Of a stretch of DNA of 62,775 bases, positions 2,370 through 58,222 are shown one piece after another. A model generated the notes under the pieces. That model saw only the letters and a list, made by a program, of their open reading frames with translations. It had not been told where the DNA came from and ran no database searches. The translations under genes were made by a program, and so were the position numbers. The DNA comes from Thermoproteota archaeon (lineage in GTDB: Archaea > Asgardarchaeota > Jordiarchaeia > Jordiarchaeales > Freyrarchaeaceae): the NCBI GenBank assembly GCA_029258835.1, contig JAPDJY010000025.1, positions 1-62,775 on the forward strand. Direction: 5' to 3'. Within the stretch, counting starts at the first letter, position 1. Each line of letters starts with the position of its first letter.

Positions 2370-3197
2370 GTGTTGCCCATTAGCCTTCACGTAAAGGTTG
2401 CCGCATTAGGTTCAGGGGGGATAAAGCGCTTTTCAGGCCATCTGGTTAGGGGAGGGCTGCTAGACTTTTTCAACAGAGTTGATCCAGAGCTTGCCAGCGA
2501 GCTTCATACGCCAAATCAGCCTAGACCTTACAGCGTTTCTCCAGCGCTCCCCGTAGGTAAAGGAAGAATTTACGGCGACCTTTTCCACGTGAGGAAAGGG
2601 GACGTGTTTGAGTTTCATCTGGGCTTTCTTATAGATGAAATTGGAGAGAAAGTGCTTGAACATCTTTCTGACTTTAAGATTAAGCTGGGAGAGGTGGGGT
2701 TTACGCCAGTCGAACTAAAGTTTAAAAGGAAAGAATATGAAGAGTTCATTAAAAGTGCAGAAATACATGATAGGTTTAGGATGGTATTTAAGACACCTAC
2801 ACAACTGTCAGTACGAAGCATGAACTATCCATTCTTATTTCCAGACCCACGCTACATCTACCCTAGCATTGCGAGGTTATGGAACACCTTTGCACCAGAA
2901 TATGTTAGAGTTGACGTCGACGAGCTTCACGGATGGGTGTCTGGCAACGTTTACGTACGTAACTACCGCCTAAACACGGTAGATGTAACAATGGGAAAAG
3001 AAAGAAAAGTTGTAGGCTTCACGGGATATGCCGACTTTTACGAGGAGAGGACGGATGGGTATGCTCCCTGGATTACGATACTCTCAGAATATGCAACGTT
3101 TTCAAACGTTGGAGCGAAAAGAACAGGTGGAATGGGAGTGGTAGAAATTAAACTCCCTAAAAGAAAGGAAGAACAAGTCGACGGCAGATCATCATAA
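2370..3197 (+). CDS. cas6: CRISPR-associated endoribonuclease Cas6 (stand-alone)
   Basis: LH..RPYSVS N-terminal motif, FKTPT, GFTG, C-terminal G-rich loop NVGAKRTGGMG. Confidence 0.9.
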   Translation: MLPISLHVKVAALGSGGIKRFSGHLVRGGLLDFFNRVDPELASELHTPNQPRPYSVSPALPVGKGRIYGDLFHVRKGDVFEFHLGFLIDEIGEKVLEHLSDFKIKLGEVGFTPVELKFKRKEYEEFIKSAEIHDRFRMVFKTPTQLSVRSMNYPFLFPDPRYIYPSIARLWNTFAPEYVRVDVDELHGWVSGNVYVRNYRLNTVDVTMGKERKVVGFTGYADFYEERTDGYAPWITILSEYATFSNVGAKRTGGMGVVEIKLPKRKEEQVDGRSS

Positions 3198-4839: not shown

Positions 4840-6390
4840 TTAAGGTAATGGAGTAACGATGTAATCTGGCGGGTATGAGACTGTAAACTTATAGTTTATT
4901 TCCAGCTGACCTCCGGGATTTAGGGTTCGCTCCCACTTAATGACTCCTACTCCAGACTTCTCGTCTGGAGACGGGTTCGAAGAGACCAGTTCAACGGAGA
5001 TTTCAGGGTCCCGAGCGACAGGTATTCTATCGTAGATAACCAGTTTAGCTTCATTTTCCAAGTGGTTCTTGACGGAGAGGAAGTAGCCGTAGGTTACATG
5101 CGCCCTACCTTTAACCACGCCCTTCTTCTCCTCCTCTCTAAGTATCATTTTACGCTCGCACTCAAGCCTTTCCTCCCAAGCTATAGGAAGCTCAAACTCT
5201 TGGTTTGGGGCGACATACGGAATGCTGGTGGTGCCTACCAGCATCCCGTTCTTAAACATCCTGCAAGTTCCAGGGCTAAGCGGAACCTCCCCATTCCTTA
5301 TTTTAACTACTTCGACGAAGTCTGAATGCTGGTAGGCGTCCCATACATAGTAGGTTTCAGCCTCAACATCGAAGCGTTTAAGAAGTATCATTGTTGGCCT
5401 CCCGGGGAAGAAAGAGCCCTTAGAGGATACTTTAAACGCGAGTGCGCCGGCTGACATAAGGTCAGCTTCCTGGAAGGCTGGTTCTAAGGCTTCCTCCATC
5501 TCTTCACCTAACGTCTCCTCAGCCATTTCCTCGGTCATAACCGCCATTTTCGGCGCTCGGGTGGGAGGGATGAAGGATGGTGCACCCGGTTTAATAGCGT
5601 TGATGAACCATGGTGCTGGCTCAGGTTTCGTAGCGGTGCGAATAATCTTGCCTGATACTGTTACGGGAACGTCTTCCCAAGACACTCCTGTAGATTGTAC
5701 TACTTGAGCGTACACGGCTATTTCAGCTTGTCCCTCCAGTAACACGTCATATACGGGAGACCAGCCAACGTTTGACGCTTCATACTGTAGTATGAAGTCA
5801 TACGTGTCTGCCCGCTCACAGATTAGATCGAGTTCGATTGCTCCTAGTTCTACGGCTTTCTTGTCGATTCCTTCAAGAAGTACTTCAATGCGCTTTATCT
5901 CGTCATTTAGAGAGGATAGCTCGCGCTCCCGCTCTATTATTTCAAAAACCTTCTTTTTCCTTATTTCCGAGATTGCTTCTAGAACTTCGTTGAGGTGTTG
6001 CTTTGAGGCTTCCCCTACAAGACCAGCGGTGACAAACGCCTCAGCTGCTTTGCTTAAAGCCTTGTCGAACGATTCAATCAGCTTTTTCGATTCTTCAATT
6101 TCGCTTTCAAGCGTTTTAACTTTCTCCTTCAACTCCCTTAACTCTCTGAGAAGGAGTTCCTTTTCGGATACAGCCTTATCTATCCCCACCACGGTTGTTT
6201 TCAAATCAGCTCCGGTTACCGTCACGCCTTTCCTAGAGAAAATCCTTATCGACCCTGGAATTATTGTTTTTTCAAGCCCTTCAACGAGGATCGTTGATGA
6301 GCCTTCCTTAAGTTCGGCTGAGAATGTGCGTCTTAAGGTGGCAAGATTTCTGAAAATTTTAACTTCTTCTATCTTGGCGAGAACACTCAT
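4840..6390 (-). CDS. DUF4140/DUF4139 (MuiA-like) protein
   Basis: N-terminal IEEVKIF..A...R, coiled coil, GWSPVYD, VQSTGVSWEDV, DRIPV, C-terminal beta domain. Confidence 0.85.
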   Translation of the reverse strand: MSVLAKIEEVKIFRNLATLRRTFSAELKEGSSTILVEGLEKTIIPGSIRIFSRKGVTVTGADLKTTVVGIDKAVSEKELLLRELRELKEKVKTLESEIEESKKLIESFDKALSKAAEAFVTAGLVGEASKQHLNEVLEAISEIRKKKVFEIIERERELSSLNDEIKRIEVLLEGIDKKAVELGAIELDLICERADTYDFILQYEASNVGWSPVYDVLLEGQAEIAVYAQVVQSTGVSWEDVPVTVSGKIIRTATKPEPAPWFINAIKPGAPSFIPPTRAPKMAVMTEEMAEETLGEEMEEALEPAFQEADLMSAGALAFKVSSKGSFFPGRPTMILLKRFDVEAETYYVWDAYQHSDFVEVVKIRNGEVPLSPGTCRMFKNGMLVGTTSIPYVAPNQEFELPIAWEERLECERKMILREEEKKGVVKGRAHVTYGYFLSVKNHLENEAKLVIYDRIPVARDPEISVELVSSNPSPDEKSGVGVIKWERTLNPGGQLEINYKFTVSYPPDYIVTPLP

Positions 6391-6662: not shown

Positions 6663-8132
6663 ATGTTAGAGTTCATGGATAAAGAGAATGGAGCGTATTA
6701 TAAGTTTTACATCGTTGATGGGCATCACCATTTAGGAGCCGACGTAGACGGGCAAAGTAACCGGAACCCCGCTGCCCCCGGAGGAACGTTTGACTTTTGC
6801 TTCAAGATAACCAGCCAGCTCTTAAGAATACTTGCTGATGGGAAAGTAGACTTGAAAGCTGAGCCACATGGCTTCTTAAAAGAGATTCTCGAACAGGAAG
6901 ACAAGTGGAAGGACGTGCTTAACGGAACTTGGGCTGTAGATAAGACGGTTGTCTTCCCGTTTAACGACGAGTTCAGGTGGAGAGAAGGAGACGAGGGGAA
7001 AGCAACTTACTGGAGGTCAAATGATAACATTCACAGATGGACTGCGCGCGCCCCTTACTCCTTTAAGCTCACAGGGTATGCGCGTATAGTTCCGCATGAG
7101 GGGGACGTGGCTGTCAGGGAGCTTCACAGGGCGGTAGAGGAGCTCGGTCTCAGAGGATTAAAGCTCCATCCTAGATCTGACGGATGGGGAGGGGAGATCA
7201 ACACGGATCCTGTAGAAAGAGTTCTTGTTGAAGCTGCTAAGCTAGGTATTCCTGTGATCTTTGATACGAGAGGGTTTAACCAGGTGGTTGACATAGCGGA
7301 GGTAACCGTTAAGGCGAAGCTGAGGCTGGCAAACATCGATAAGAGGCTTGCGAAGAGGCTTAAGGTAATACTCGCCCATGTAGGGTTTCACGTGGGTCAT
7401 GATGAGCTTTTCTCCATCCTAAGTCACCCTAATATTTACGGTGAAACTTCAGGGGTTCACGACGCGGGGATAAGACGGCTTTTTGAGGAGGCCTCTGTAA
7501 GGCTAAGCGAAAACTTAGGACCATACCGTAGATGGTCGGAAAAGTTAATATTTGGGACGGATTTCCCATATTTCGACGTGCCACATGCAGTACAGTTCAT
7601 CTCCTACGTCCTTAGCGAAGATTTCCCTGGAACCTTCGAGGACGCACAGCGTATTCTGGGAGTTAACGTGCTACGCTTAATACCTCCAAAACTGGAGAGG
7701 GCACCCTTTAAACTTGAGGCGGTTCATTTTAGAAGGGAGCTGGCCCCCATGGTTAAAAGGAAAATAGCCTTAGAACTAGCTAATCTAGCATCTAATAAAA
7801 AATGTGATGTAACCTCTTTTGACCCTTTCCTCCAGCCTCCGCCGAGGGCGAACGTTAGAGAAGACTGCGTCATCTCCATTAGGAGCATGAACGGAGACGA
7901 TAAGAAAGCTTCACTCATGTTTTTCACAATACGTGGGATAGGAGTTATAGCACGGTTAGACTCTGAGTTAACCAGCCTAGACACATTATTAAGAAGAGAG
8001 TTAGCGTACGATGATTCACCATTAAGGCAAAGGTTTTACAATAAGCTCTGGCCCAGCAAGGTAGAGCGCGAACAGGCGCAAATTGAAGAGAAAATAAGGA
8101 GCATTTTGAAGCCACTCTTTGAGAAATCCTAA
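6663..8132 (+). CDS. Amidohydrolase (Amidohydro_2 TIM barrel) with an extra C-terminal domain
   Basis: IVDGHHH, GLKLHP, ILAHVG, FGTDFP motifs; ~150 aa unassigned C-terminus. Confidence 0.85.
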   Translation: MLEFMDKENGAYYKFYIVDGHHHLGADVDGQSNRNPAAPGGTFDFCFKITSQLLRILADGKVDLKAEPHGFLKEILEQEDKWKDVLNGTWAVDKTVVFPFNDEFRWREGDEGKATYWRSNDNIHRWTARAPYSFKLTGYARIVPHEGDVAVRELHRAVEELGLRGLKLHPRSDGWGGEINTDPVERVLVEAAKLGIPVIFDTRGFNQVVDIAEVTVKAKLRLANIDKRLAKRLKVILAHVGFHVGHDELFSILSHPNIYGETSGVHDAGIRRLFEEASVRLSENLGPYRRWSEKLIFGTDFPYFDVPHAVQFISYVLSEDFPGTFEDAQRILGVNVLRLIPPKLERAPFKLEAVHFRRELAPMVKRKIALELANLASNKKCDVTSFDPFLQPPPRANVREDCVISIRSMNGDDKKASLMFFTIRGIGVIARLDSELTSLDTLLRRELAYDDSPLRQRFYNKLWPSKVEREQAQIEEKIRSILKPLFEKS

Positions 8133-8271
8133 AGATGAAGAAGGAGAGAAGGAAAACATTCCATTCTCAAAAGAATTTAAGAAATTATATATGTCAGTTT
8201 TCTCTAAAATTCTTTAGTAAATTATGCTTTAAGACCTAAATGTTGCAATTGACTTTTAGGAGGACTCCTTA

Positions 8272-9738
8272 ATGCCGGATAAAGGTGCCGAGGAGCAAAA
8301 GGAGAAGGAGGTTAAGCCCCTGAAGGCTGTTAAGAAAACTGTTAAGAAAAAGAGAGCGGAGGCCGCTGAGGAGAAAGCCGTCGAGGAAAAGAAGGGGGAA
8401 GAGGAGGAAGTCATCGAGAGAATGTTTAAAGAAGCAGAGGAAGCTAAGGAGGAGAAGTCTCCTAAAAAGCAGTTTAAAGTTGTTGTTAAGGAGGGATTAT
8501 CAGGATACATATCTCTTAATGAGAAGGATGCCTCAGAGTTGCAGATTCTTGAAGGGTCAATAGTGGAGTTTGAGGACCCACTCTCGGGGGCGGGGGGTGT
8601 AGCCCTTGCCCACCTAGACAAAGATGTTTCTCCAGGAACCGCTGTCATGGAGCCTGCCCTTAGCGAGGCATGCGGCATCGATGAGGGCTTCGAGGTGAAC
8701 ATTGGCAAGTTTGAGGGAACACCACAGAAGATAACTAAGATAGTCTTTGGGGTGGAGCCGCTAGAGGGGGGAGCCGAGGAGGCTATAAGGAGGGTTCTGG
8801 ACGCTAAAGACGAATTCCAAAATTGGCTTGATGGGAGGGTTATATTCAAAGATTGGGTTTTGAAGTTTCCTAAGCTAAACGTTAACGTTTATGTCGTTTC
8901 TACGGAGCCTCCATTAACTGGAAGGCAGGTTGGAATAATAAACTTCGCTGAGATAAAAAGCTATGAAGTCAAACCTTGGAGGGCGGCTGTTCCATTCAAT
9001 GCAATCCTGTTAATAGACGTGTCAAGAAGCATGCTGACGGAGGACATGAAGGTTACGAACATAGCTCCAGCGATCGAAGCCATAAAAACGATAGGAGGGG
9101 AAATCCCTGAAATTAAGGAGTTCTTGGAGCAGTTCCGAGAGGGGAAAAACGTCAAAAGAGTTGCTGGAGCCGTGTTTGCAGCGCTACTTTACCTGGTGGA
9201 GAAGGTTGGGCGCGGTTACGGAGAGAGAGTGGCAATAATAACTTATAGTGAGACAGCTGAGCCCATAACGTTCCTCATGACAGGAGGGGTGAAGCTTCCA
9301 TACTTCCATCCTGGGAAGAGCAAGATGGCGGGGGTCTCGCAGCTTGGAAGGCTCATAATCGACAGGCTTAACAGGGTTTCCAGCAGCCACACCAATATGT
9401 CTGAGGCGCTCATGGAAGCATTAAAGCTAATAGAAACGTGGGAAAAGGAGGAGCCTGAGGGGAAAAGGCTACCTAACATGATCGTGCTGTTAAGTGACGG
9501 TTTCCCAGACATTTGGGGAGATGAAGGGCCACCCGTCCAAGTTGTTCACGACCACTTCTCAAAGAGAAGTGACGTAGTAATATATACTGTTGGAATTGGA
9601 GGGGAAGTGCAGGAAAGGATAATGGAGGCAATAGCAACTAAAGGACATGGAATTTACTATAAGGCTGAAGACTTGGGAGACCTGCTAAACTGGTATCAAA
9701 AATTAGCAAGGGACCTCGTCATCCGGCTAGAAGCTTAA
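8272..9738 (+). CDS. CDC48 N-domain-like + von Willebrand A domain protein
   Basis: E/K-rich N-tail; double-psi-barrel-like halves (ISLNEKDASELQILEGSIVEF; VMEPALSEACGIDEGFEVNI); CDC48_2-like (LDGRVI...VYVVSTEP); vWA MIDAS DVSRS, HTNM, LLSDG, IYTVGIG. Confidence 0.75.
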   Translation: MPDKGAEEQKEKEVKPLKAVKKTVKKKRAEAAEEKAVEEKKGEEEEVIERMFKEAEEAKEEKSPKKQFKVVVKEGLSGYISLNEKDASELQILEGSIVEFEDPLSGAGGVALAHLDKDVSPGTAVMEPALSEACGIDEGFEVNIGKFEGTPQKITKIVFGVEPLEGGAEEAIRRVLDAKDEFQNWLDGRVIFKDWVLKFPKLNVNVYVVSTEPPLTGRQVGIINFAEIKSYEVKPWRAAVPFNAILLIDVSRSMLTEDMKVTNIAPAIEAIKTIGGEIPEIKEFLEQFREGKNVKRVAGAVFAALLYLVEKVGRGYGERVAIITYSETAEPITFLMTGGVKLPYFHPGKSKMAGVSQLGRLIIDRLNRVSSSHTNMSEALMEALKLIETWEKEEPEGKRLPNMIVLLSDGFPDIWGDEGPPVQVVHDHFSKRSDVVIYTVGIGGEVQERIMEAIATKGHGIYYKAEDLGDLLNWYQKLARDLVIRLEA

Positions 9739-9869: not shown

Positions 9870-12800
9870 TTAGGATGGGGTAAACGTCACGGTTATTAGG
9901 GAGTTTTGAACTAGCTTGTTGGGTATCTCCTTAAGCTGCCCTTTCACTTTTTCAAAGAAGATCATTCCCAGGTAATAGGATTCAGGCTGCTTAGGTTTAT
10001 GTACTTCCCATATGATTGGCTCATACGTTAGCCTCACTATGTTTCCCTTTATGAGCGTTGTTTCAACCGTTTTCCGCAGAATAACTTTTTTAGCTTTCTT
10101 TTCAAACACGGCGAAAACAGCCCTAACAGGTAGATTGTAGTCGGCAAAGCTTTGAACGGAGGGGGAAAGCTTCAACTCTAGTTTATCGCCTTCCATCTGG
10201 ATGTATTCTGACAAGGGCGGAGTGCTGATGTATGCCACTCTTATAAGAGGCTTAACTGCTTCGACAAGAAGCCGCCTTTCAGTAGTCCAGCCGGACGCAC
10301 CATTCCTTTTAATTTCAAGCTTAACCGCGCACTCCTTGTCAACAGCGAATAGAGGTACTTTTATGGGTATTCTTGCGAGAACCTTGTCCTTTGGAGCTAT
10401 TTCTATGGGTATTACACCGTCTAATACTGTAAAGTCGTCCACAGCCTCACGGTATGCGAGTTCAAAGCTGAGGGTGGAATCCGTTAGGTTCTCTATCTGG
10501 ATGATTATGTCGTGGAGAGAGCCGGGGGGAAGGGAAGGAGGAAGCTCGTGAACTATTACGCTTATAGCCTCCCTTAAGTCCAGCACGTTGACTTGAATGG
10601 AGTCCTCAGCTATTTTCTTAGAGTCTTTAATTATTGCAGCTGTTAAAAGAATGGATTTAACACCGCTTGGAACCGGTATTGGAGGAACATCTATTGACGA
10701 CTCAGTCACGGGATCTGACAGTTCCATTGTGGCAACCGTTTCAGACCCGGATGCGGTTATGCTCTCTATTACGAGTGAGCATGGAGTTAGGGAGCTGCTT
10801 AAACCGCTTATCGACAACTTTCCCCTAATCGTAGATCCTGAAAGAGAACTTTTAGGAACCTCAGACCACTTTAAGCTTACTTCTGGGCCTCTAACAACTT
10901 TAAACTTGGCAGGTGCCTCGACAAGGTTAACTAGCTCGCCGTCGTGTAAGACTTCAACCGTGAGGTAAAAGACGCCTTCACCGGCTCCCTTACCTAAGAT
11001 GTCCCTTGGAATAGTCCATTTAACCGGCATTGTCGTTGAAACTCCTGGTTTGACCGAGGCCTCAAAAATCTTTCTTTCAAATGTTTCGTCTGAAGGAGAC
11101 TTGATCTTCACTACCACCTTCACTGGTGAGGGGGATAGGAGGTCGCTTGCATCGACCATTAAAGACGTCTCCAATGTTTCCCCTACGTTATAAGTGGACT
11201 TTGGTTTCTGCCCGACTTCAACGGAGACCATGGCTCCTTGGAAGAACACTCTGAAGTCCCTAGACCAGCTTTCAGATATCACGTGGCCACTTGAATCTAG
11301 AAGCTGGGCTCTTATAGCACACCGTGGACTGATCCAAGAGCTGTAAAGCCAAGGCTTTAACACTAGCGGGTCTATTTCAACCCAGCTTCCTTCGGTTTGC
11401 CCTTCTAGCACGGCTTTAGCCCAGTCAAGCTTCGCTATCTCCTCCGACATGGCGACGAAAAGGGCGTGATCCTTCGCCCTTATAGGTTTAAGGTAGACGC
11501 CCCACGGCTTTAGATCACTCAGCACTGAGTCTAGTTCGCGTCCCTGGTCCTTGTCGACAACGGATATTTTGAGTGTTAAATACATGTCTTGGGGGGTGGT
11601 GTTCTCGACTGCTACTATAAAGGGAATCTCTGTTTCTCCAGTAACGATTACGCCGTCAACTTGGGCTATGAGGTCTGTCTTGCAAACAACCCTATATACA
11701 GGGATTGCGAGCTTTTCCACCGCGACGAGCTCGGAGGACACTGTTAGCTTGGCGCTGAGAGTATACTGAGGTACGCCTGCCTCGGTGTCAAACTCTATTT
11801 CGCCATAACGCCTCTCACCGGGTTCCAGCGTTTCAAGGGTAAAGAGCTCTTCCAATACTTCTTCCCCGGCGTGATCAATGACTACACAGCTAAGGTTGAG
11901 ATCTCTGAGGGGTTCTTCGCCCTTGTTCTCCACGAATATTTTACATGTTACCGATTGTCCCTCGAAAACGATGGATGGTTCAAACGATAATTCGAGGGAA
12001 ACCGGGACGGCTACTAGCTCCTGAAGGTTTGGAATGCCAGAGAGAGGGTCGCTCCAGACATTGCTGCATGTTTGGTCAGCTATTATCTGCAATTCTCTCG
12101 AGAGACTTTCTATGCTTTCCCCAAGCTCGAAGTACTTCTCCAGTTGATAGTCAGCCGTAGTCATGGGCGGGATAATTTTGCCAGACATGTCCCCATAGAC
12201 GCTAACCAACAACGGGTTGAGGAACTCAGACTTTAGAATGCCAAGTTCTTCGAGTTCCTCCTTCAAGAAGAAGAACATGTTTTTTACCGCGTCTACTATG
12301 CGTTTAACAGGTTCTTTCCCTCCCAGCCTGCAATCAAAAAAGTAGAATGCCGCGAAGTTAGGGTGCTTCCTAGCGAACTCGTCAAGATTCCTAGGCTTAA
12401 AGAAGGGGCCTGTTAACCCCCACCTGATCGCTGAACGTCTATTCTTGATGAGCGTTTCAGAGTCTACTTCGGGAATTAATTCCCCACTATCATGAAGCTT
12501 CTTGGCCTTAAGGGCTAATGCTTGGAGCAGTGCTGCGAGAGCCACCTTACGGATCACACTAATTTGAGAGTCAAAAACTCTAATTTCAACCGTGTTAAAG
12601 CGTGTAAAAGGGTACATATCACACATTCTGGCGGGAGTACGGCCAACAACCCTTTCAAAGAAAGATTCGTCCAAGGAGGTAAGATGTGGAATGTAGTGTT
12701 GGGGATCGTCAGGTCCGAGTTGTCGGGCGTTAAGTTGGAGTCGGATGCTTCTAATGCAACCCGGAGCCTGAAGCCTTCCATCCTTCATTGTGACGATGTC

Positions 12801-13427
12801 TGTTGGCCGTCCGGCTACGAAGGGAGAGTTGACGGAGAGAGCTACTAAGTGTGGTATGAATGCTCGGATGAGGTTATAGACGGATAGCCTGTAGCCTGGG
12901 TCAGGGACGCCGATATGGTGGTGGTCGCCGAAGCTTAAACCTTGCTGGTACTCCATCAGGGGGTTTAGCCCGGTCGTTATGAATTTGACTCCTGCAGGCA
13001 GCGAGTCGTGGGAAAGTTTGAGTATAGTGTGCATCCACCAAGCAAGCTCTTCAAGCGTAGTGCAGGGCGGTGTGGCGGCCTCAAGGATCCACGTGATCGT
13101 TCCAATATGGGGGTCGCGTCCAAGAATTTCGATGTCAACTTGTTCGCCGTTAGATAGCGTGTACGTTACTATTAGGGTGTCACCCCTTCTTTCTACGGGT
13201 GCGATCCTTATGTTAGAGGTTTTCTTGCTGATCATTTCCGTGAGCTCATCCTGTGGGTCCCTGAGAATCCCTTTAAGACCTTCCGCTACATCCTGAACTA
13301 TTTTTCCCATAATGCTGACCATTTTCTCTCCATCAATCCAACGGCCTTTCAAGTTTACGATCTGGATTTCAGATTCTATGCCATGCGTGAACGGTAGCTT
13401 GGTTAGCGTACTTGCCAACTTCACCAC
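9870..13427 (-). CDS. Carboxylate-amine ligase (GCS2/YbdK family) fused to multiple Ig-like beta-sandwich domains
   Basis: THGIESEIQIV, ILEAATPPC, GDHHHIGVPD, LVALSVNSPF, TVEIRVFD; C-terminal CARDB-like repeats (VENKGEEP..LEPGE; VENTTPQ; IENLTDS..IAPKD). Confidence 0.8.
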   Translation of the reverse strand: MVKLASTLTKLPFTHGIESEIQIVNLKGRWIDGEKMVSIMGKIVQDVAEGLKGILRDPQDELTEMISKKTSNIRIAPVERRGDTLIVTYTLSNGEQVDIEILGRDPHIGTITWILEAATPPCTTLEELAWWMHTILKLSHDSLPAGVKFITTGLNPLMEYQQGLSFGDHHHIGVPDPGYRLSVYNLIRAFIPHLVALSVNSPFVAGRPTDIVTMKDGRLQAPGCIRSIRLQLNARQLGPDDPQHYIPHLTSLDESFFERVVGRTPARMCDMYPFTRFNTVEIRVFDSQISVIRKVALAALLQALALKAKKLHDSGELIPEVDSETLIKNRRSAIRWGLTGPFFKPRNLDEFARKHPNFAAFYFFDCRLGGKEPVKRIVDAVKNMFFFLKEELEELGILKSEFLNPLLVSVYGDMSGKIIPPMTTADYQLEKYFELGESIESLSRELQIIADQTCSNVWSDPLSGIPNLQELVAVPVSLELSFEPSIVFEGQSVTCKIFVENKGEEPLRDLNLSCVVIDHAGEEVLEELFTLETLEPGERRYGEIEFDTEAGVPQYTLSAKLTVSSELVAVEKLAIPVYRVVCKTDLIAQVDGVIVTGETEIPFIVAVENTTPQDMYLTLKISVVDKDQGRELDSVLSDLKPWGVYLKPIRAKDHALFVAMSEEIAKLDWAKAVLEGQTEGSWVEIDPLVLKPWLYSSWISPRCAIRAQLLDSSGHVISESWSRDFRVFFQGAMVSVEVGQKPKSTYNVGETLETSLMVDASDLLSPSPVKVVVKIKSPSDETFERKIFEASVKPGVSTTMPVKWTIPRDILGKGAGEGVFYLTVEVLHDGELVNLVEAPAKFKVVRGPEVSLKWSEVPKSSLSGSTIRGKLSISGLSSSLTPCSLVIESITASGSETVATMELSDPVTESSIDVPPIPVPSGVKSILLTAAIIKDSKKIAEDSIQVNVLDLREAISVIVHELPPSLPPGSLHDIIIQIENLTDSTLSFELAYREAVDDFTVLDGVIPIEIAPKDKVLARIPIKVPLFAVDKECAVKLEIKRNGASGWTTERRLLVEAVKPLIRVAYISTPPLSEYIQMEGDKLELKLSPSVQSFADYNLPVRAVFAVFEKKAKKVILRKTVETTLIKGNIVRLTYEPIIWEVHKPKQPESYYLGMIFFEKVKGQLKEIPNKLVQNSLITVTFTPS

Positions 13428-14164
13428 CCTGCTATTCTCCTAGCGGCTTCCGTCAGAATTTGGAATATATTCTTCACAGCACCGTTATCAAGAAGGCTCT
13501 CAGATAGGCTTACATCTAGGAGGGATTTTTTACCTTTCTTTGCAAGCATGTGAAGGCAGTATACTACTGGTCCTCCGCCGAATGTTTCGTTATCTAAGGA
13601 TATACTTACGTTCTTGATGGAATCCTTTAGGGACGGGATTATTCCATGCTTATCTAAAGAAAATGAGTCGTTAATTATTAAGAGGTTTTTTTCCGTTGGA
13701 AGATCTTTAAAGCTCCTAAGAACTACGATGATCGCTTCAGAGTTGCTTCTCCCTAAAGGAGTGGTAGAAATTATCTTCACCACTTTTTCTCCTGTTTCGA
13801 TTCTTCCCTCAGCGTCGGGAAGAACCAAATAGTAGAATGGATTTCCGGATTTCCTCGCCTCATCAAATAATTTTTTTATTGTTTTTGAGAGAGGAGAAAG
13901 ATCTTCTGGTTGGGTTGATATGACCATGAGGGGGATGAAGCGTTCACCTTCCTTAGGGGTTGAAAAGCGACCTTTCTCCCTTAAATCCTCGAGGTATCTT
14001 AGCAGTAGCTTATCAAAGGAGGTGGCAATGAGCATGTAAAGGTCACTATACTCTGCAGCAATAGTAACAGCTAACGAGAGGCTTTTTTCAAGGTCACCTA
14101 GTAGAGAGGTGAGGGTGGAGGCAACTGAATCGACATGCTTAATTAATTCAATTACTTTTTCCAT
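13421..14164 (-). CDS. Hypothetical protein, possibly a degenerate N-formylglutamate amidohydrolase-like fold
   Basis: NETFGGG and LLDVSLSESL resemble the FGase NxPFxGG and xQxExxxxL segments; overlaps the ligase start. Confidence 0.45.
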   Translation of the reverse strand: MEKVIELIKHVDSVASTLTSLLGDLEKSLSLAVTIAAEYSDLYMLIATSFDKLLLRYLEDLREKGRFSTPKEGERFIPLMVISTQPEDLSPLSKTIKKLFDEARKSGNPFYYLVLPDAEGRIETGEKVVKIISTTPLGRSNSEAIIVVLRSFKDLPTEKNLLIINDSFSLDKHGIIPSLKDSIKNVSISLDNETFGGGPVVYCLHMLAKKGKKSLLDVSLSESLLDNGAVKNIFQILTEAARRIAGW

Positions 14165-14173
14165 GCTCTCCTC

Positions 14174-15343
14174 CTACTTTGACAAGTCTTCAATCGACCT
14201 TAAGAGCTCGCTTCGTTGCCGTCTTAACTCATGCAACTTCTCGGAGAACTCACCCATAAGTTCCCTTACCCTGCTTATGGACTCGTCTATCATCTTTACT
14301 TTTTCGTTTAAGTTACTCATCATCTCACCTAAACCTGTCAGGGATGATACAGACGACAACTTTGCCTCTAAAGAACTAACCCTATCCTCCAAAAGGCTAA
14401 ATTTATGCTTAAGATCTTCAAGTATCACTTTCAACTCTGAAACATCCTGCGGAGGGTAGAATTGCTGATGGGCTTCTGCCTTCTCGGAGCTGGCTTCAGC
14501 GGTCATTTCAGCCTTTAACGCAGCTTCTTTTGTGAAACCCAGCTGGGCTTCTACAATCCCCGTCACTTCGGGCTTTACGAGGCCGCTCGTATAACAGTCA
14601 TAAACCTCCGCTAAGGTCTCCGATATTTCCCTAGCATAAGATTCTCCCCCGAACCCGGAGAAAACACACGAGATCTTATCATGATACCGCATCCCCCATA
14701 CCCCTCTGCTCCCCTTCTGGTCTAAGAAGAGCATTAGGGATGAGGCAAAGGAAGGGCTCTCGAAAAGATTCTGCAAGGTTCTAATTATAAGGTTTAAATC
14801 TTTTGGCAGCACTCCTCCCTCTTCAAAGTCGTTACGCACCCAGATGTACTCAAGATTATTCTCTCCAAAAAGCCTTCGCAACCATTTTTCTAAGCCATCG
14901 ATGAAAATGCGCGTCCCGCTAAACTCGTAGGTTCTCTCGCCGAAGTTTAATATGGAAAGCAGGTTTGCCACGATCATTTTTGACTCTTTCTCGCGGGTCT
15001 TGAAGACACATACCCACTTCTCTTTTCCGTAGCCAACACCACAAACTCTACTCTCCCCAGACTCTAACACCGTTATCGCTATCATGTTGTTTCGTAAAAG
15101 GGGGTTAAGGATGACCTCATTGGAAAAAACTTCGAGGAGAAGCTGAGAGGTTCTAACAGTTTCAGGGTTGAGGACTACGCCTTTAACGTGTTTAAAAAGG
15201 GATTTTGCAACTTTGCCACTTTTAAGAGTTTTAACGGCTTCGCCGATGACGTTTAAGTCTACGAAGAAGTATCCGCTGATCACACCGGCAGTAAAACCAT
15301 ACCATTTATCAAGCCACTGCCTGAGAACTTCACCATACTTCAA
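14174..15343 (-). CDS. Hypothetical protein with C-terminal coiled coil
   Basis: Long ORF; TTG at 15343 follows GGGAGGG; heptads in the last ~90 aa. Confidence 0.7.
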   Translation of the reverse strand: MKYGEVLRQWLDKWYGFTAGVISGYFFVDLNVIGEAVKTLKSGKVAKSLFKHVKGVVLNPETVRTSQLLLEVFSNEVILNPLLRNNMIAITVLESGESRVCGVGYGKEKWVCVFKTREKESKMIVANLLSILNFGERTYEFSGTRIFIDGLEKWLRRLFGENNLEYIWVRNDFEEGGVLPKDLNLIIRTLQNLFESPSFASSLMLFLDQKGSRGVWGMRYHDKISCVFSGFGGESYAREISETLAEVYDCYTSGLVKPEVTGIVEAQLGFTKEAALKAEMTAEASSEKAEAHQQFYPPQDVSELKVILEDLKHKFSLLEDRVSSLEAKLSSVSSLTGLGEMMSNLNEKVKMIDESISRVRELMGEFSEKLHELRRQRSELLRSIEDLSK

Positions 15344-15587
15344 CCGATTCCCTCCCCTGAAAGCCAGCATTCACTAAATGTAGAATTTTAAGTTCAAATC
15401 AAATATAAGACTTGAAAGAAAGTTTTAATAATCATTTCCATAGTCTCGTTTCATTTTTTCGTTCCTTTTTTAACGTCCTGCAGGTAGGTTTGCAAGAGAG
15501 AGCTAAGAGAGGAAAAAGGGGAAGTGTGTTGTTCAATGACACCATTAATGAGTGGCCTTAATTTTTGTTAGAACTTACTTCTCAAGT

Positions 15588-15788
15588 TCAGCTTGGAGGG
15601 GCTTTCTTGGCTTTTTCTTCCACGTGTTTCTCAAGCGCGCTAGCAGCTTCTTGCATCATCTTTGCTCGTTCTTCCTTGGTTTTAGCTAAGGCTTCCTGCT
15701 CTTCTTTTCTTCGTTCCTCGTGGAGCTTCTCGAGTAACTCTTTAGCTTTCTTCACCTCTTCAGGTGATGGCGGAGCTTCTTCGCCCAT
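15588..15788 (-). CDS. Small Glu/Lys-rich helical protein (66 aa)
   Basis: ATG at 15788 after GAGGTGG; E/K/A-rich helix flanked by APPS at both ends. Confidence 0.65.
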   Translation of the reverse strand: MGEEAPPSPEEVKKAKELLEKLHEERRKEEQEALAKTKEERAKMMQEAASALEKHVEEKAKKAPPS

Positions 15789-16099
15789 TAAACCACCTCT
15801 CTCCTCCAGGGAGTTCATCATAAAGTAAATAGTTCACAAACACATTTATCTATTTTTTGGGAGAAAAATAAAGAAGCACCTAAAAAGTTGAAATGATTGC
15901 ACTTCAAAGGTAGAAAATACTTAACAATGAGATGATAAGCGTTTTCATAAAATTGTTAAAGAAATAATAGAAGAAGTTTAACAAAGCATTTTTAAAAACA
16001 AACTAACATTATGTTGCTATGATTTTAAAACCATCTTTAAGACATGCTTGGGAGTCTGCCACCCTTTGATGAAGGAAGTTGATTGGAAAGGGGTTCTAG

Positions 16100-26988: not shown

Positions 26989-27080
26989 AGGGCACGAGCC
27001 ACGGAAGACCTTTAAGGCAGCCCTCCTCCTAGAAAACCTTGATAAAAAGGATGGAAGAAGGCTTCTTTGGGGGCTTCTTG

Positions 27081-28877
27081 ATGGTGCGCATAGCGGTTAT
27101 TGACAGGGACAGGTGTAAGCCTAATGACTGCTCTAAGGAATGCTACCGGTTCTGCCCGGGGGTCAGGATGGGGCAGGAAACCATAGTTTTCGACGAGGAA
27201 ACAGGGAAGGCAAGGATCATAGAGTCTCTTTGTGAGGGGGAAGGGATTTGCGTTAAAAAGTGTCCCTTCCACGCCATACGAATAGTGAACCTTCCCGAGG
27301 AGCTCGAAAGCGACTTAACGTTCAGGTACGGGCCAAACATGTTTAAGCTCTACCGCTTACCGATACCCAAAAGCGGAAGGGTGACCGGGCTCATCGGGCC
27401 GAACGGGGTAGGGAAGACGACGGCTATGCGTATACTAGCAGGAGAGCTGAAGCCTAACTTTGGACGCTATGACGACCCGCCTAGCTGGGAGGAGATAATT
27501 AAATACTATAGGGGAAGCGAACTGCAGGGGTACTTTGAAAGGATGTCTAACGGTGACTTAAAGGTTGTTCACAAACCGCAGAACATAACGCTGCTCCCTA
27601 AAGTTGTTAAAGGGGTTGTTGGGGAACTCTTAGAGAGGGTGGACGAAAGAGGCGTCATGGAGAAACTTGTGAGGGAGCTTGAGCTTAAGGAGGTTCTTGA
27701 AAGAGAGCTGAGCGTTCTTAGTGGAGGGGAGCTTCAACGGGTGGCTATAGCGGCCGCAATATCCCGCGACGCTGAGGTTTACCTCTTTGACGAGCCTTCA
27801 AGCTACCTAGACATATACCAGAGGCTTAATGCTGCACGCGTAATAAGAAGGCTCGTGGACGAGGGGAAAACAGTGGTGTGCATAGAACATGACTTAGCGC
27901 TGGTTGACTACCTAAGCGATGTTGTATGTATGTTTTACGGGGAGCCCGGAGTGTATGGTGTGGTAACGAACCCCCATGGGGTGAGAGAAGGTATAAACAT
28001 ATATTTGGACGGTTACCTTCCCGACGAAAACCTTAGGTTTAGAAGCGAAGCGATAAGGTTCCATGTGAACCCGGTTCCATCTGAGAGGTGGACGAGCGAA
28101 GACGTCCTCCTCTCTTTCGGAGAGATGGAGAAGCGACTCGGCGAGTTCTCGCTGAGGGTGGAGGGTGGAGAGGTTCACAGGGGAGAGGTCGTCGGGATAA
28201 TAGGTCCAAACGGCATCGGGAAAACGACGTTTATAAAGCTCGTGGCAGGATTACTGAAGCCGGATACGGGAGCTGCTCCGCCCAGAACATTAAAGGTGAG
28301 CTACAAGCCACAGTACTTGACTCCGAGCTACGATGGAACAGTCCAGTCGTTACTGCTAGAATCTGGAGGGAAAGAGGTTTTCTCAAGTGCGTTTAAGACG
28401 GAGGTCTTAGAGCCGTTAGAGGTTACTCCTCTTCTAGATAGGGAGGTTAAAAGTTTAAGCGGCGGTGAACTTCAGAGGGTCGCTGTAGCCGCATGCTTGG
28501 CTAGAGAAGCAGACTTATACTTGCTGGACGAGCCAAGCGCGTTCTTGTCTTCCGAGCAGAGGCTTAACATGGCAAAGGTTGTAAGGAGGACTGTGGAGAA
28601 AGCCGAGGCGGCTGCATTCGTTGTAGAACACGACATAGTCCTCGTAGATGCGATATCAGACAGCTTAATGGTCTTCACGGGGAAGCCTGGAGTGATGGGG
28701 GTTGCCAATAAGCCTATGGATCTAAGGAGCGGCATGAACGTCTTCTTAAGGCAGATGAACGTGACTTTTCGAAGGGATCCTAGGACAGGAAGGCCACGTG
28801 TGAACAAGGAGGGAAGCCGCCTTGACAGAGAGCAAAAGGCGATAGGAGAATTCTATTACGTGGGAGGGGAGGAATGA
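27081..28877 (+). CDS. rli1: Ribosome recycling ATPase ABCE1/Rli1
   Basis: Fe-S N-domain (CKPNDC..EC..CP; C.G.GICVKKCP), two NBDs, RPRVNK; ATG at 27081. Confidence 0.97.
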   Translation: MVRIAVIDRDRCKPNDCSKECYRFCPGVRMGQETIVFDEETGKARIIESLCEGEGICVKKCPFHAIRIVNLPEELESDLTFRYGPNMFKLYRLPIPKSGRVTGLIGPNGVGKTTAMRILAGELKPNFGRYDDPPSWEEIIKYYRGSELQGYFERMSNGDLKVVHKPQNITLLPKVVKGVVGELLERVDERGVMEKLVRELELKEVLERELSVLSGGELQRVAIAAAISRDAEVYLFDEPSSYLDIYQRLNAARVIRRLVDEGKTVVCIEHDLALVDYLSDVVCMFYGEPGVYGVVTNPHGVREGINIYLDGYLPDENLRFRSEAIRFHVNPVPSERWTSEDVLLSFGEMEKRLGEFSLRVEGGEVHRGEVVGIIGPNGIGKTTFIKLVAGLLKPDTGAAPPRTLKVSYKPQYLTPSYDGTVQSLLLESGGKEVFSSAFKTEVLEPLEVTPLLDREVKSLSGGELQRVAVAACLAREADLYLLDEPSAFLSSEQRLNMAKVVRRTVEKAEAAAFVVEHDIVLVDAISDSLMVFTGKPGVMGVANKPMDLRSGMNVFLRQMNVTFRRDPRTGRPRVNKEGSRLDREQKAIGEFYYVGGEE

Positions 28878-41246: not shown

Positions 41247-42317
41247 GTGGTTTCCTTGGAGGCGTTAATCGAGAAGGTGGTAAGTGGGGTTCAGGAAGAA
41301 GACAGACGACTCTTAGACGAGCTCTTCGAGCATACGCCTAAGATCCAAGTGTTTGGAGTCGGCGGAGCGGGGAATAACGCTGTAAGTAGACTTTTGGAGG
41401 CGGGGATAGAGGGAGCAGAACTTATCGCAGTCAACACGGACGCTCAAGACCTCGCAAGTGTAAGGGCTGACAGGAAAATACTGATAGGGAGAGAGACGAC
41501 TAAGGGTTTAGGGGCTGGGAACGACCCTGAGGTAGGTGAGGCGGCGGCTAAGGAGAGCATTGAAGAGTTAAAGGAGGCTATCTCGGCGGACATGGTCTTC
41601 GTCACCTGCGGCTTAGGGGGAGGAACCGGCACCGGCGCCGCTCCAATAATAGCGGAGGCAGCGCGTAAAATGGGCATTCTAACAGTTTCAGTTTGCACCT
41701 TACCGTTTATAGCTGAAGGAGTGAAAAGGTGGAGGAGCGCATCCTCCGGGCTTAAAAAGCTTTCTAGAAATTCGGACACGCTCATAGTTATACCCAACGA
41801 TAAGCTACTCGAGGTTGCCCCGAACCTGTCTCTCATACAGGCGTTCAGGCTGGCAGATGAGATATTGATCAGAGGGGTCAAAGCGGTGGCTGAGCTGGTG
41901 ACCAAGCCTGGACTAGTCAACGTGGATTTAGCGGATATTAGAACAATAGTGAAGAAGGGAGGTACCGCACTCATATCGCTCGGTGAAGCTAGCGGTGAAA
42001 GAAAGGAGATTGAAGCCGTGGAGGACGCGTTAAACAGCCCCCTCCTCGACGTGGACTTGAAGAGTGCTAACGGGGCACTTGTAAACGTTAGCGGAGACCA
42101 GAACCTTAAGCTTCACGAGGCGGAGTCTGTTGTAAGGGTTATATCAGACAGGATCGGCTCGGACGCGGAGATCATTTGGGGGGCGCTGATAGATCCAACG
42201 TTGAAGGACAAACTAAGAGTGTCACTGGTGGTTAGCGGTGTGGCGTACCGTTACGTGGAACAGATCCTGTCAGGAGACTACATTTTTCCGCCGGAGTTAC
42301 AGTTAAGCAGACTGTAG
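41247..42317 (+). CDS. ftsZ: Cell division protein FtsZ
   Basis: GVGGAGNN, NTDAQ, GLGGGTGTG, NVDLAD. Confidence 0.96.
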   Translation: MVSLEALIEKVVSGVQEEDRRLLDELFEHTPKIQVFGVGGAGNNAVSRLLEAGIEGAELIAVNTDAQDLASVRADRKILIGRETTKGLGAGNDPEVGEAAAKESIEELKEAISADMVFVTCGLGGGTGTGAAPIIAEAARKMGILTVSVCTLPFIAEGVKRWRSASSGLKKLSRNSDTLIVIPNDKLLEVAPNLSLIQAFRLADEILIRGVKAVAELVTKPGLVNVDLADIRTIVKKGGTALISLGEASGERKEIEAVEDALNSPLLDVDLKSANGALVNVSGDQNLKLHEAESVVRVISDRIGSDAEIIWGALIDPTLKDKLRVSLVVSGVAYRYVEQILSGDYIFPPELQLSRL

Positions 42318-56204: not shown

Positions 56205-56468
56205 TTGGTGGGAGAAAAGTTGGGTACTATGACTGTGCCAATACCTCATAGGTTCGCGATAACCAAAGTTAGGATAGTTGGCGAGTGGAGTTGGGACCAG
56301 AAGTGTGTTATATGCCTCGGCGACATAAAGCCTGGAGAGAAGATCTTGATGTGTCCCAAGTGCGGTGCAATAGGACATGAAGACCACTTTTTAGAGTGGA
56401 TAAAGGTGAAGGCGCTGTGCCCAAATTGTAGAAGTATCCTGAGGGAGAAAGACTTAAAGAGGTTTTAA
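56205..56468 (+). CDS. Small RING-finger E3 ubiquitin ligase
   Basis: CVIC...CPKC...HEDH..EW...CPNCR; first gene of the Ub operon. Confidence 0.88.
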   Translation: MVGEKLGTMTVPIPHRFAITKVRIVGEWSWDQKCVICLGDIKPGEKILMCPKCGAIGHEDHFLEWIKVKALCPNCRSILREKDLKRF

Positions 56469-56481
56469 GGAGGAGGACGGC

Positions 56482-56715
56482 GTGATCGTTAGGGTGGTTT
56501 CAGCTATTGGAGGAGACGTCTGGGAGATGGATCTCCCCCCTGAAACCGACATAGGAAAACTTAAGAGGGAGGTTGCCAAAAAAAGGAAGGTTTCCCCGAA
56601 CATGATAGCTATAGCATTCAGGGGTATGCAGCTTGACGACGATGTCACCCTTAAAGAGGCGGGAGTAGAAGAATACGACAAACTCTATGTAATAACCCGG
56701 ACTGAGGGTGGATGA
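56482..56715 (+). CDS. Ubiquitin-like protein with free C-terminal GG
   Basis: Beta-grasp pattern, FRGMQLDDDVTLKEAGV, ends TRTEGG-stop. Confidence 0.92.
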   Translation: MIVRVVSAIGGDVWEMDLPPETDIGKLKREVAKKRKVSPNMIAIAFRGMQLDDDVTLKEAGVEEYDKLYVITRTEGG

Positions 56716-56739
56716 ACAGTAGGACTTGGGGGGCTAAAA

Positions 56740-57201
56740 ATATTAACGGACGAGCAGTTTTACGCCCGCCTGGTTTACGAGGCTAAGCTGCTGGAGAAAG
56801 AGGAGCCGACGTTTAAACCGGTGAATGGAGACTTAACCCATTGGAAGGGTGTCATCTTAGGGACGGGAGTGTATGATGGAGGAGTGTTTGAGATAGAGAT
56901 ATTCATACCCAGAGACTACCCGTTTAAACCCCCCAAGGTTTTTTGGAACACCCCCATATGGCACCCTAACATAAATAGGCGTGAAGTATGCGTGGGTATA
57001 CTGGGGAAAGAATGGACGCCTAACACAACGATCGTTGGGGTTATAGAGGCGCTAAGAACCCTCCTAAACTTCCCGAACCCTCACTCCCCTCTTAACACTA
57101 ATGCTGCAAGGCAGATGCTTAGGGACATGAAAAAGTTCAGAAGGAAGGTTAAAGAGTACATTGAAAAGTATGCCACGTGGCAGAAGGTTCTGAAAGGATA
57201 A
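56740..57201 (+). CDS. Ubiquitin-conjugating enzyme E2 (start uncertain; ATA at 56740 proposed)
   Basis: YPFKPPKV, WHPNI...VCVGIL...W; helix-1-like YARLVYEAKLL lies upstream of the GTG at 56821. Confidence 0.9.
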   Translation: MLTDEQFYARLVYEAKLLEKEEPTFKPVNGDLTHWKGVILGTGVYDGGVFEIEIFIPRDYPFKPPKVFWNTPIWHPNINRREVCVGILGKEWTPNTTIVGVIEALRTLLNFPNPHSPLNTNAARQMLRDMKKFRRKVKEYIEKYATWQKVLKG

Positions 57202-57223
57202 AGGGAAGAGTAAGGTTGGTGGA

Positions 57224-58222
57224 ATGAGGGAGGACAGGTATCACAGGCAGCGTCTCCTGAAGGAGTGGAGTCAGGAGAAGGTTAGAGGGTCTACTGTTTT
57301 CATTGCTGGAGTAGGGGCTTTAGGATCCGTGGTGGCCCTAAACTTGGTGATGATGGGGGTTGGGGAAATACTTATTGCAGACTACGACACGGTTGAAGTC
57401 TCCAACCTGAACAGGCAGCTTCTCTTCAAGGAGGACGATGTTGGACGGAACAAGGCTGAAGCCGCTAGGGATGCACTCTTGGAAGTTAACCCTGACGTGA
57501 AGGTTGAAGCCTTCCCGGTCGACATAGCAGAGGTTCCAAGGGAGCATTATGAGAAGTGCGACGTGATAGTAGACGGACTAGATACTTTCGAGGCTAGACG
57601 ATGGATAAACTCTCTAGCTGTAGAGTTAAAGAAGCCGCTTGTGCACGGTGGAATGTATGGGTGGTGGGGGAACGTTCAGGTGGTGATACCTTACGTTACA
57701 CCGTGCCTTGAATGTCAACCGCTAATCCCAGAAGACAGGCTGATGCAGATTTGCACCCCCTTAGGGGTGAAAAGGAAGAAGAGGGAAAGGGTAAAGGTGA
57801 GGGAGGCGCTCCCTGCAGTCGTCACTGTTAGCTGCGTGATAGGTGGTATACAGTCGCAGGAAGTTGTAAAGATCCTTCTTGGCTTGAAGCCGCTCGACAG
57901 CTTCCTGTTCTATGACGGTTTAAACCAGGCGTTCACCTTAGTTCCGCTTAGAAGGAATCCTAAATGTGTTGTTTGCGGTGAGGAGTACGCTTTGAAAGGG
58001 GTGGAGTACGCCTTGGATCCGGAGGAAACGGTAGGGGAGCTTAAAGGCAGGCTTAGCGCTACGTGGGGGCTAAGGGAGCCTGTAAGGCTCGTTTACAAGG
58101 CAAGGTTAATAGAGGGCGACGATAAGAAAATAAAAGAGTTGAACGTTAAGAGCGGAGACGTACTCTTCGTTTACGATCAAAGCAGGGCTAAGCCAGTAAA
58201 AATAACGGTTAAGATCTCATGA
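57224..58222 (+). CDS. Ubiquitin-activating enzyme E1 (ThiF) with C-terminal ubiquitin-fold domain
   Basis: RYHRQ, GVGALG, SNLNRQ, CLEC, candidate catalytic ICT, CVVC, C-terminal Ubl-like domain. Confidence 0.92.
   Translation: MREDRYHRQRLLKEWSQEKVRGSTVFIAGVGALGSVVALNLVMMGVGEILIADYDTVEVSNLNRQLLFKEDDVGRNKAEAARDALLEVNPDVKVEAFPVDIAEVPREHYEKCDVIVDGLDTFEARRWINSLAVELKKPLVHGGMYGWWGNVQVVIPYVTPCLECQPLIPEDRLMQICTPLGVKRKKRERVKVREALPAVVTVSCVIGGIQSQEVVKILLGLKPLDSFLFYDGLNQAFTLVPLRRNPKCVVCGEEYALKGVEYALDPEETVGELKGRLSATWGLREPVRLVYKARLIEGDDKKIKELNVKSGDVLFVYDQSRAKPVKITVKIS

Follow-up and report, generated by a model that had tools for sequence, protein, structure and literature searches.

A motorless Cdc48-type N domain joined to a MIDAS-bearing vWA domain in Asgard archaea, a candidate docking subunit for an amide ligase and hydrolase pair

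The protein described here, which we call Cdc48N-vWA, joins a Cdc48-type N domain directly to a von Willebrand factor A (vWA) domain with an intact metal ion-dependent adhesion site (MIDAS). Its gene occupies positions 8272..9738 (+) of a 62,775-nucleotide stretch of contig JAPDJY010000025.1 (the window), which derives from a member of the Jordarchaeia, an Asgard group. The gene travels with those for an Amidohydro_2-type metal hydrolase and a giant GCS2-type carboxylate-amine ligase rather than with ubiquitin or proteasome genes, and this context points to an undescribed enzyme-docking system. On balance we lean toward the view that Cdc48N-vWA is a docking subunit that links the hydrolase, and likely also the ligase, to one shared carboxylate-bearing target, and that the set would run a reversible amide-bond cycle.

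The open reading frame (ORF) encodes 488 amino acids (aa), and its coordinates are exactly those of the initial annotation. Orthologues are 64-99% identical within Jordarchaeales/Freyarchaeota and 33-36% identical in other Asgard classes; the closest named homologues, from 'Candidatus Jordarchaeales/Freyarchaeota,' are annotated as 'VWA domain-containing protein' alone. An AlphaFold2 model made with 88 homologues in the alignment has a mean predicted local distance difference test (pLDDT) score of 80.6 and is mostly confident over residues 62-488. It begins with a disordered Lys/Glu-rich tail (residues 1-61, 8272..8454, +; pLDDT 30-45). Next come a double-psi beta-barrel subdomain, Nn (residues 62-149, 8455..8718, +), which carries the family motif FEDPLSG at residues 100-106, and a second, CDC48_2/beta-clam-like subdomain (residues 150-238, 8719..8985, +), which includes VYVVSTEPPLTG; both were placed by hhalign and by VIA, a rigid-body structure search independent of Foldseek. 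The vWA domain (residues 239-488, 8986..9735, +; PF00092 and VIA) follows the N domain, and Pfam and VIA found no AAA domain in the protein. A Cdc48-type N domain joined to a MIDAS-intact vWA domain in place of AAA ATPases was the central proposal of the initial annotation, and the profiles, the structure matches, and the invariant MIDAS bear it out.

The evidence for the N domain lies mainly in profiles and structure. In Pfam, this copy has no CDC48_N match at E values up to 1, i.e., below the gathering threshold, and the sole signal in the N region is Molydop_binding, a related double-psi barrel (E 0.054). CDC48_N matches in Cdc48N-vWA homologues are sub-threshold, and a paralog in the same genome (L004:1465-2787) clears the threshold at 38.0 versus 35.1 bits. 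A profile of residues 62-238 cut from 33 family members (alignment A4) was compared by hhalign with 24 Asgard Cdc48 N domains (A5), and the two matched with a probability of 96.9% (E 1.3e-10) over 150 columns that span both subdomains (columns 2-168). Modeled alone, residues 62-238 reach a pLDDT of 93.2, and Foldseek aligns this isolated domain with p97-N at template modeling (TM) scores of 0.70-0.74 (root mean square deviation [rmsd] 3.3-4.0 Å, ~178 columns) and with NSF-N at 0.65-0.68. VIA ranks PEX1-N first (Z 17.3, 2.6 Å, 159 residues), with plant CDC48A-N (16.4), p97 (15.7), Sec18-N (15.3), NSF-N (15.0), a mycobacterial AAA ATPase (13.9), and VAT-N (12.7) among the further matches; the UT3 domain of UFD1 scores Z 13.0 (rmsd 3.1 Å, 160 residues). 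For the first subdomain, the VAT double-psi barrel superposes at Z 13.7 (rmsd 1.5 Å, 81 residues), and barrel-only structures cover model residues 3-86; for the second, two-subdomain N domains align across 155-164 of the 177 residues in VIA.

Because the hhalign, Foldseek, and VIA matches agree, we conclude that the N region is a real two-subdomain Cdc48/p97/PEX1-type N domain, closest to the N domains of AAA ATPases and not to Ufd1, whose UT3 domain has the same two-subdomain fold and matches less well. The double-psi barrel/CDC48_2 fold proposed in the initial annotation is thus adopted, and its placement of both subdomains at residues ~65-235 holds (62-238 here), except that 'VYVVSTEPP' (residues 207-214), which it took for the end of the domain, sits within a strand of the second subdomain, and the domain continues to ~238. 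The fold is that of the Cdc48/p97/VAT, NSF/Sec18, and PEX1/PEX6 N domains (PF02359 plus PF02933), whereas the Asgard N domain has conserved motifs of its own, FEDPLSG and STEPxLxG, and is followed by a vWA domain where Cdc48, p97, and NSF have AAA rings. An exhaustive hidden Markov model search of 1.84 billion cluster representatives with the N-domain profile retrieved 143 clusters at E ≤ 0.001; nearly all are of short (~410-500 aa), long (~660-765 aa), or hydrolase-fused (~850-890 aa) length, and canonical Cdc48 proteins were not retrieved. Judged by its sequence, the N domain of Cdc48N-vWA is a small, distinct family.

The vWA domain is readily recognized (PF00092, E 2.5e-9, 38 bits versus a cut-off of 23.8). 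Its MIDAS is complete, consisting of the motif D249-V-S251-R-S253 (9016..9030, +), T374 (9391..9393, +), and D409 (9496..9498, +), and D249, S251, S253, T374, and D409 are invariant across the 88 homologues. In VIA the best matches are BatB and an aerotolerance protein (Z 20.8-20.9, rmsd 2.0-2.2 Å, 176-180 residues), and the others include ANTXR2 (~20), TFIIH p44/p34 (18-19.9), ArnB (18.1, at 24% identity), Rpn10 (17.6-17.7, lower than many unrelated vWA domains), the Rea1/MDN1 MIDAS domains (16.6), which have been solved with ubiquitin-like (UBL) ligands, and the NorD vWA domain (16.3). A profile of Jordarchaeia members searched against PDB sequences returned vWA matches only, the best being Sulfolobus VWA2 (E 2.3e-7), with no DEPDC5, Cdc48, or Ufd1; an ESM Atlas search yielded the cluster of the protein itself and, beyond it, just generic bacterial vWA clusters. 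Like BatB, Sulfolobus ArnB/VWA2, TFIIH p44/p34, Rpn10, and Rea1/MDN1, the Asgard protein thus has a canonical vWA fold with a MIDAS. It differs from them in its N-terminal Cdc48N module, in having no evident ubiquitin-interacting motifs (UIMs) and no zinc fingers or AAA partner, and in two additions to the vWA domain itself. One is a family-specific, mostly helical insert of ~45 residues after the first vWA strand (residues 254-296, 9031..9159, +; delimited from secondary structure and invariant columns), in which M254, D258, V261, N263, P266, E269, I271, F284, F288, and R296 are invariant. The other, after the insert, is the invariant motif EKVGRGxGE at residues 310-318.

The partner genes flank this one. 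Directly upstream on the same strand lies the gene for a 489-aa Amidohydro_2-type metal hydrolase (partner 1; 6663..8132, +; Pfam E 3.9e-15), and the stand-alone hydrolase family retains its metal ligands in invariant columns: an HxH motif (H21, H23), K167, H169, H239, and D300. On the other side, convergent with the Cdc48N-vWA gene, is the gene for a giant GCS2/YbdK-type carboxylate-amine ligase of 1185 aa (partner 2; 9870..13427, −; Pfam GCS2, NCBIfam TIGR02050). Its ligase domain is the N-terminal ~450 aa, it also carries Ig-like repeats, and its nearest solved relative is E. coli YbdK (1r8g, E 1.3e-9).

This arrangement recurs in related genomes. We compared 21 loci, comprising the first 20 kb of this window and 20 regions of ~20 kb, each surrounding a family member, drawn from 16 Asgard genomes; they cover several Asgard families and include two paralogous trios of this genome (contigs C11 and C2). 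The 352 neighbor proteins came from crude ORF calling and were clustered by BLAST, and short or overlapping genes may be miscalled. In 12 loci the hydrolase gene (~490-aa product) and the Cdc48N-vWA gene are co-oriented neighbors; a further two loci have both in one operon, with only the ligase in between. The GCS2-type ligase is adjacent in 8 of the 21 loci and within ~10 kb in another 5. The three proteins are also inherited together. We searched one set of 151 Asgard genomes with each protein and compared the resulting lists: Cdc48N-vWA had matches in 62, the hydrolase in 63 (E ≤ 1e-25), and the ligase domain in 62; all three were present in 60 genomes, and an incomplete set was found in only 5. 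All matches are confined to the same eight families, with none in the remaining families. Cdc48N-vWA is present in every sampled member of four of its eight families, and it occurs in Heimdall-, Hod-, Loki-, and Thor-type lineages.

Gene fusion gives a further link. In several Asgard families, a family of 850-900-aa proteins (A7) consists of a hydrolase-like half followed by a Cdc48N-vWA half, and hhalign relates the first half to the hydrolase family (99.95%, E 1.4e-38) and the second to the Cdc48N-vWA family (99.7%, E 2.2e-26). A homologous-protein search for longer relatives returned none, a weak negative given that the fused forms are only ~21-23% identical. Besides its two complete trios (C11, C2), this genome carries an orphan copy of Cdc48N-vWA on contig C19 and a single fused protein, an 848-aa A7 member on contig C12 (L005:88-2631, +) that lacks HxH and has a degenerate MIDAS.

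In AAA ATPases, the Cdc48-type N domain grips cofactors and substrates, and in other vWA proteins the MIDAS metal site holds on to an acidic side chain that the protein ligand supplies. A protein built only of two protein-binding modules and a disordered tail is most naturally read as an adaptor, and we consider such a role likely. Our favored reading goes further. Cdc48N-vWA would be a cytosolic, ATPase-less docking protein, the nonenzymatic member of a three-gene set restricted to Asgard archaea. It would be in physical contact with the hydrolase as an attached subunit, and its second binding module would hold a carboxylate-bearing determinant either on the common target or on the ligase. 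Amide-making and amide-breaking enzymes would in this way be brought onto one substrate, giving a reversible and possibly tag-like amide modification cycle. The analysis establishes the domain identities, the intact MIDAS, the lack of an ATPase domain, and the co-inheritance, adjacency, and fusion; we infer the physical binding, the pairing of modules with partners, the chemistry, and the nature of the substrate (protein or small molecule).

PafA and Dop have a carboxylate-amine ligase fold. The writer-eraser logic of PafA/Dop and the FluG/NodGS-type fusions offer the nearest parallels, in that an ATP-dependent carboxylate-amine ligase is likewise paired with an amide hydrolase; FluG is described as a bifunctional protein made of an amidohydrolase and a glutamine synthetase-like part (PMC6478659). 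The Asgard set differs from both in that its ligase is of the GCS2/YbdK type and fused to Ig-like repeats, its hydrolase is a separate gene, and it has an obligatory third, nonenzymatic Cdc48N-vWA subunit. It differs from pupylation in that no Pup-like tag was identified among the small neighboring ORFs of the trio. One candidate considered for that part was a 77-aa Glu/Lys-rich protein (15588-15821, −) upstream of the ligase gene and its two operon partners. It ends in KKAPPS here and in KKAPSGG in a relative (L037:16319-16546, −), and because this C-terminal end varies we do not propose it as a tag.

Several observations weigh against the docking reading. Most Amidohydro_2 and GCS2 enzymes have small-molecule substrates, and the cycle may for this reason belong to metabolism and not to protein modification. 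The trio is not always contiguous: in the large family f9, ligase and hydrolase genes are adjacent (the ligase is shorter there, at 550-590 aa, and without Ig repeats), but 10-50 kb of the same contig separate them from the gene for the long form of Cdc48N-vWA, and one paralog per Jordarchaeia genome has no hydrolase or ligase neighbors (loci L039 and L041). The fused A7 family has lost the HxH and the MIDAS consensus, and these forms therefore argue for physical association of the modules and not for joint catalysis. Of course, the genomes of one phylum are not independent, and the co-occurrence counts overstate the evidence for that reason.

The same gene pair could be read in another way. 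NorD, CoxE, CbbO, and the chelatase D subunits are vWA-type factors that serve client enzymes, and Cdc48N-vWA might likewise be a maturation or activation factor for the neighboring metal hydrolase, either needing no MoxR or borrowing an ATPase in trans. This would suit a partner of the metal-dependent TIM-barrel hydrolase type in which a set of Lys and His residues is conserved, the tight adjacency and occasional fusion of the pair, and the structural likeness of the vWA domain to that of NorD (Z 16.3) and to BatB (Z 20.8). It fits less well with the remaining context, as MoxR-vWA chaperone pairs differ from the Asgard loci precisely in their adjacent AAA+ gene, and no conserved MoxR-type AAA+ gene is found near any of the 21 loci. 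Nor does this idea account for the ligase, whose co-inheritance is just as strict, and the hydrolase-like modules of the fused forms have no metal ligands. We consider this explanation quite unlikely.

The initial annotation had gone in a different direction, proposing a Ufd1/Rpn10-like substrate adaptor for an archaeal ubiquitin- or tag-dependent degradation pathway. In such a scheme the N domain would bind ubiquitin or a ubiquitin-like tag, and the vWA domain would dock substrates on Cdc48, PAN, or the proteasome. The idea has some structural appeal, since the same fold binds ubiquitin in Ufd1 and UBX/UBL domains in p97 (UFD1 UT3, Z 13.0), and the vWA domain resembles those of Rpn10 (Z 17.6-17.7) and of Rea1/MDN1 in UBL-bound structures (Z 16.6). 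Among the genes of this genome are three for Cdc48 paralogs and one for a ubiquitin-like protein with a C-terminal GG, and two clusters of the family (P0153 and P0154; 565-570 aa) carry a C-terminal ubiquitin-like domain after the vWA domain (PF00240, E 3.1e-5, 24.1 bits, just below the cut-off; P0153 is from Candidatus Sigynarchaeota).

The context and the ranking of structures tell against it. When the ubiquitin-cluster proteins of the window and a Cdc48 were compared by BLAST with the 352 neighbor proteins of the 21 loci, no relative of the ubiquitin-cluster proteins turned up. The single AAA ATPase detected lies near the orphan paralog, and the orthologous locus does not conserve it. The annotation had spoken of the window's CDC48 and PAN, yet the Cdc48 and PAN-like genes lie outside the window, on contigs C10, C25, C1, and C19 (a Pfam AAA [PF00004] search of the genome gave no match on this contig), and the ubiquitin-like gene is 47 kb off. 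The phyletic pattern follows the ligase and the hydrolase; Cdc48, by contrast, was found in each of 26 sampled genomes. The N domain is nearer to the ATPase N domains (Z 15-17) than to UT3, no UIM-like motif is evident when the sequence is read by eye, and the protein ends with its vWA domain. In contrast to Ufd1, no Npl4-type partner or conserved Cdc48 linkage was found for it at the 21 loci. A Ufd1/Rpn10-type degradation role thus finds no support in the 21-locus context or the structure ranking, and we hold it to be very unlikely. The adaptor part of the earlier proposal survives, on the strength of two binding modules and a tail; the ubiquitin/proteasome part, lacking conserved linkage in related loci, is not supported. 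The 'tag-dependent' idea is nevertheless kept alive by the class of the ligase, a carboxylate-amine ligase, and by the rare C-terminal ubiquitin-like domains.

A second eukaryotic resemblance appeared in the whole-model Foldseek search, where the top matches are DEPDC5 and yeast Iml1/Sea1 (E 1.2e-11 to 5.5e-10, TMq 0.35-0.40), with alignments of ~420-450 columns over both domains at 10-12% sequence identity. They rank above p97 N-D1, which superposes on the N domain only (TM score), and they are the sole solved proteins that match both domains in the same order in that search. This suggests a DEPDC5/Iml1-like scaffold, i.e., an archaeal counterpart or ancestor of the half of that protein made up of its N-terminal domain (NTD) and SABA domain, in GATOR1/SEACIT, that would organize small-GTPase regulators of the longin or Roadblock type. 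According to a review, the NTD of DEPDC5 resembles the Sec18/NSF N domain and its SABA domain resembles one in Sec23 (PMC8534245); the SABA domain of Sea1 binds Npr2 (PMC9646525). In VIA, the DEPDC5 NTD (its residues 3-166; 157 residues aligned) matches our N domain at Z 12.1 and Iml1 does so at Z 9.1. Both DEPDC5/Iml1 and the Asgard protein are scaffolds without catalytic residues of their own. Distribution and context offer three further points in keeping with such a role: the protein family reaches into Heimdall-, Hod-, Loki-, and Thor-type lineages; in one of the Asgard families, four loci place a Roadblock gene ahead of the long form; and in another, the operon starts with a weak small-GTPase-like gene. 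Liu et al. describe Nprl2-like longin proteins in Asgard archaea, and their passage on GATOR1 and Depdc5 reports no DEPDC5 homologue (10.1101/2020.10.19.343400).

Other results point away from this scaffold. The 50 best VIA matches for the whole model (Z of at least 15.8) are single-domain matches only and do not include DEPDC5, so a rigid two-domain superposition with DEPDC5 is unsupported. Each domain taken singly is closer to other proteins (for the N domain, Z 15-17 versus 9-12 for DEPDC5/Iml1; for the vWA domain, ~21). With identity of only 10-12%, there is no detectable sequence relationship in the PDB profile search or with Pfam IML1 (PF12257), which has no match in the genome even at E 10, and the exhaustive N-domain search gave no ~1,500-aa protein with an N-terminal match. 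The SHEN, DEP, and C-terminal domains are absent, as the protein stops after its vWA domain, and the MIDAS is intact in the Asgard protein. Its genetic partners are a hydrolase and a ligase and not Nprl2/3, no longin or Nprl-like gene is among the annotated neighbors, and the Roadblock gene sits with a gelsolin-like gene in one family only. We therefore regard a DEPDC5/Iml1-like scaffold role as very unlikely. The domain order itself is indeed the one seen in DEPDC5/Iml1, and we assign just as little probability to common descent.

Returning to the docking reading, it can be extended to a bolder picture that ties several of these threads together: an undescribed Asgard system of reversible protein modification, loosely pupylation-like, in which the GCS2 ligase would write an amide-linked mark, the Amidohydro_2 hydrolase would erase it, and Cdc48N-vWA would either read it or bring in the substrate, and in which the two-domain reader could also be the prokaryotic source of the DEPDC5/Iml1 NTD-SABA scaffold. 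We offer it as a speculation that is probably wrong in this full form.

The family varies in architecture and in local gene content. The tail of residues 1-61 is variable in sequence and, in the alignments, is substituted in other members by a C-terminal Lys/Glu tail (paralog 3) or by extra barrels and a Pro-rich linker. The barrels and linker belong to 700-aa members from Loki-, Thor-, Hod-, and Heimdall-type lineages (alignment A2, e.g., P0030 and P0086), which extend N-terminally of the 420-aa core with a double-psi-barrel-like domain, a ~150-aa Pro-rich linker, and a second small barrel (WEDPLTR...YSTEPP), for up to three N-like modules in total. Two variants (P0180 and P0152) end in zinc-ribbon-like Cys motifs. 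Family f21 (L052 and L053) has the operon order hydrolase, ligase, Cdc48N-vWA, headed by a 206-aa protein (L052:16108-16725, −) with weak small-GTPase matches (GTP_EFTU at E 1.9e-4, Roc, and Ras) and a 303-aa protein with no Pfam match. In family f9 (L048-L051, e.g., L049:6924-8232), the gene for the 720-aa long form is immediately preceded by those for a two-domain gelsolin-like protein and a Roadblock/LC7 protein, an actin gene is close by, and a gelsolin-like gene is also found near the pair in a Jordarchaeia genome (L038:5847-6725, −). Roadblock and gelsolin-like genes were considered as partners and are treated as bystanders because they are confined to one family.

In this window, the Cdc48N-vWA ATG is preceded at a distance of 7 nt by a Shine-Dalgarno-like taGGAGGA (8258..8265, +), read from the sequence, which follows a 139-nt AT-rich spacer that contains a TATA-like 'ttatatat.' Two further genes share the ligase operon (13421..15370, −; clusters c15 and c16), one for a 247-aa protein with no Pfam match (13421-14164) and one for a 398-aa coiled-coil protein (14174-15370); they are kept beside the ligase in three Jordarchaeia loci only. 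Just upstream of the hydrolase gene is that of a 516-aa DUF4139/DUF4140 (MuiA-family) protein with a central coiled coil (4840-6390, −), whose position is not conserved in other loci. Elsewhere the window encodes a Cas6-like endoribonuclease (2370-3197), an ABCE1/RLI-type ATPase (27039-28877), and FtsZ (41247-42317), and it contains no tRNA genes. Positions 56400-58222 are probably part of an Asgard ubiquitin-type cluster: one gene encodes a ubiquitin-like product ending in ...TRTEGG (PF00240 match, E 8.9e-11, at 56503-56703), and the ORF at 57224-58222 has another ubiquitin-like domain at its C terminus; this cluster is 47 kb from the Cdc48N-vWA gene and shows no linkage to it in other genomes.

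Both domains of Cdc48N-vWA are textbook modules. Their combination here is a motorless Cdc48-type head set on a MIDAS vWA domain and genetically locked to an amide ligase and a hydrolase, and our literature search found no published description of the family or of the trio. Among the archaea closest to eukaryotes the module is widespread, being present in 62 of the 151 sampled Asgard genomes. If the three proteins do form a writer/eraser/adaptor machine, they would constitute a new post-translational or metabolic regulatory system at the boundary between prokaryotes and eukaryotes. Relatedly, no other prokaryotic protein that we found shares the domain order of DEPDC5/Iml1's front half, which makes Cdc48N-vWA a concrete, testable candidate for the origin of that part of the nutrient-sensing GATOR1 scaffold.

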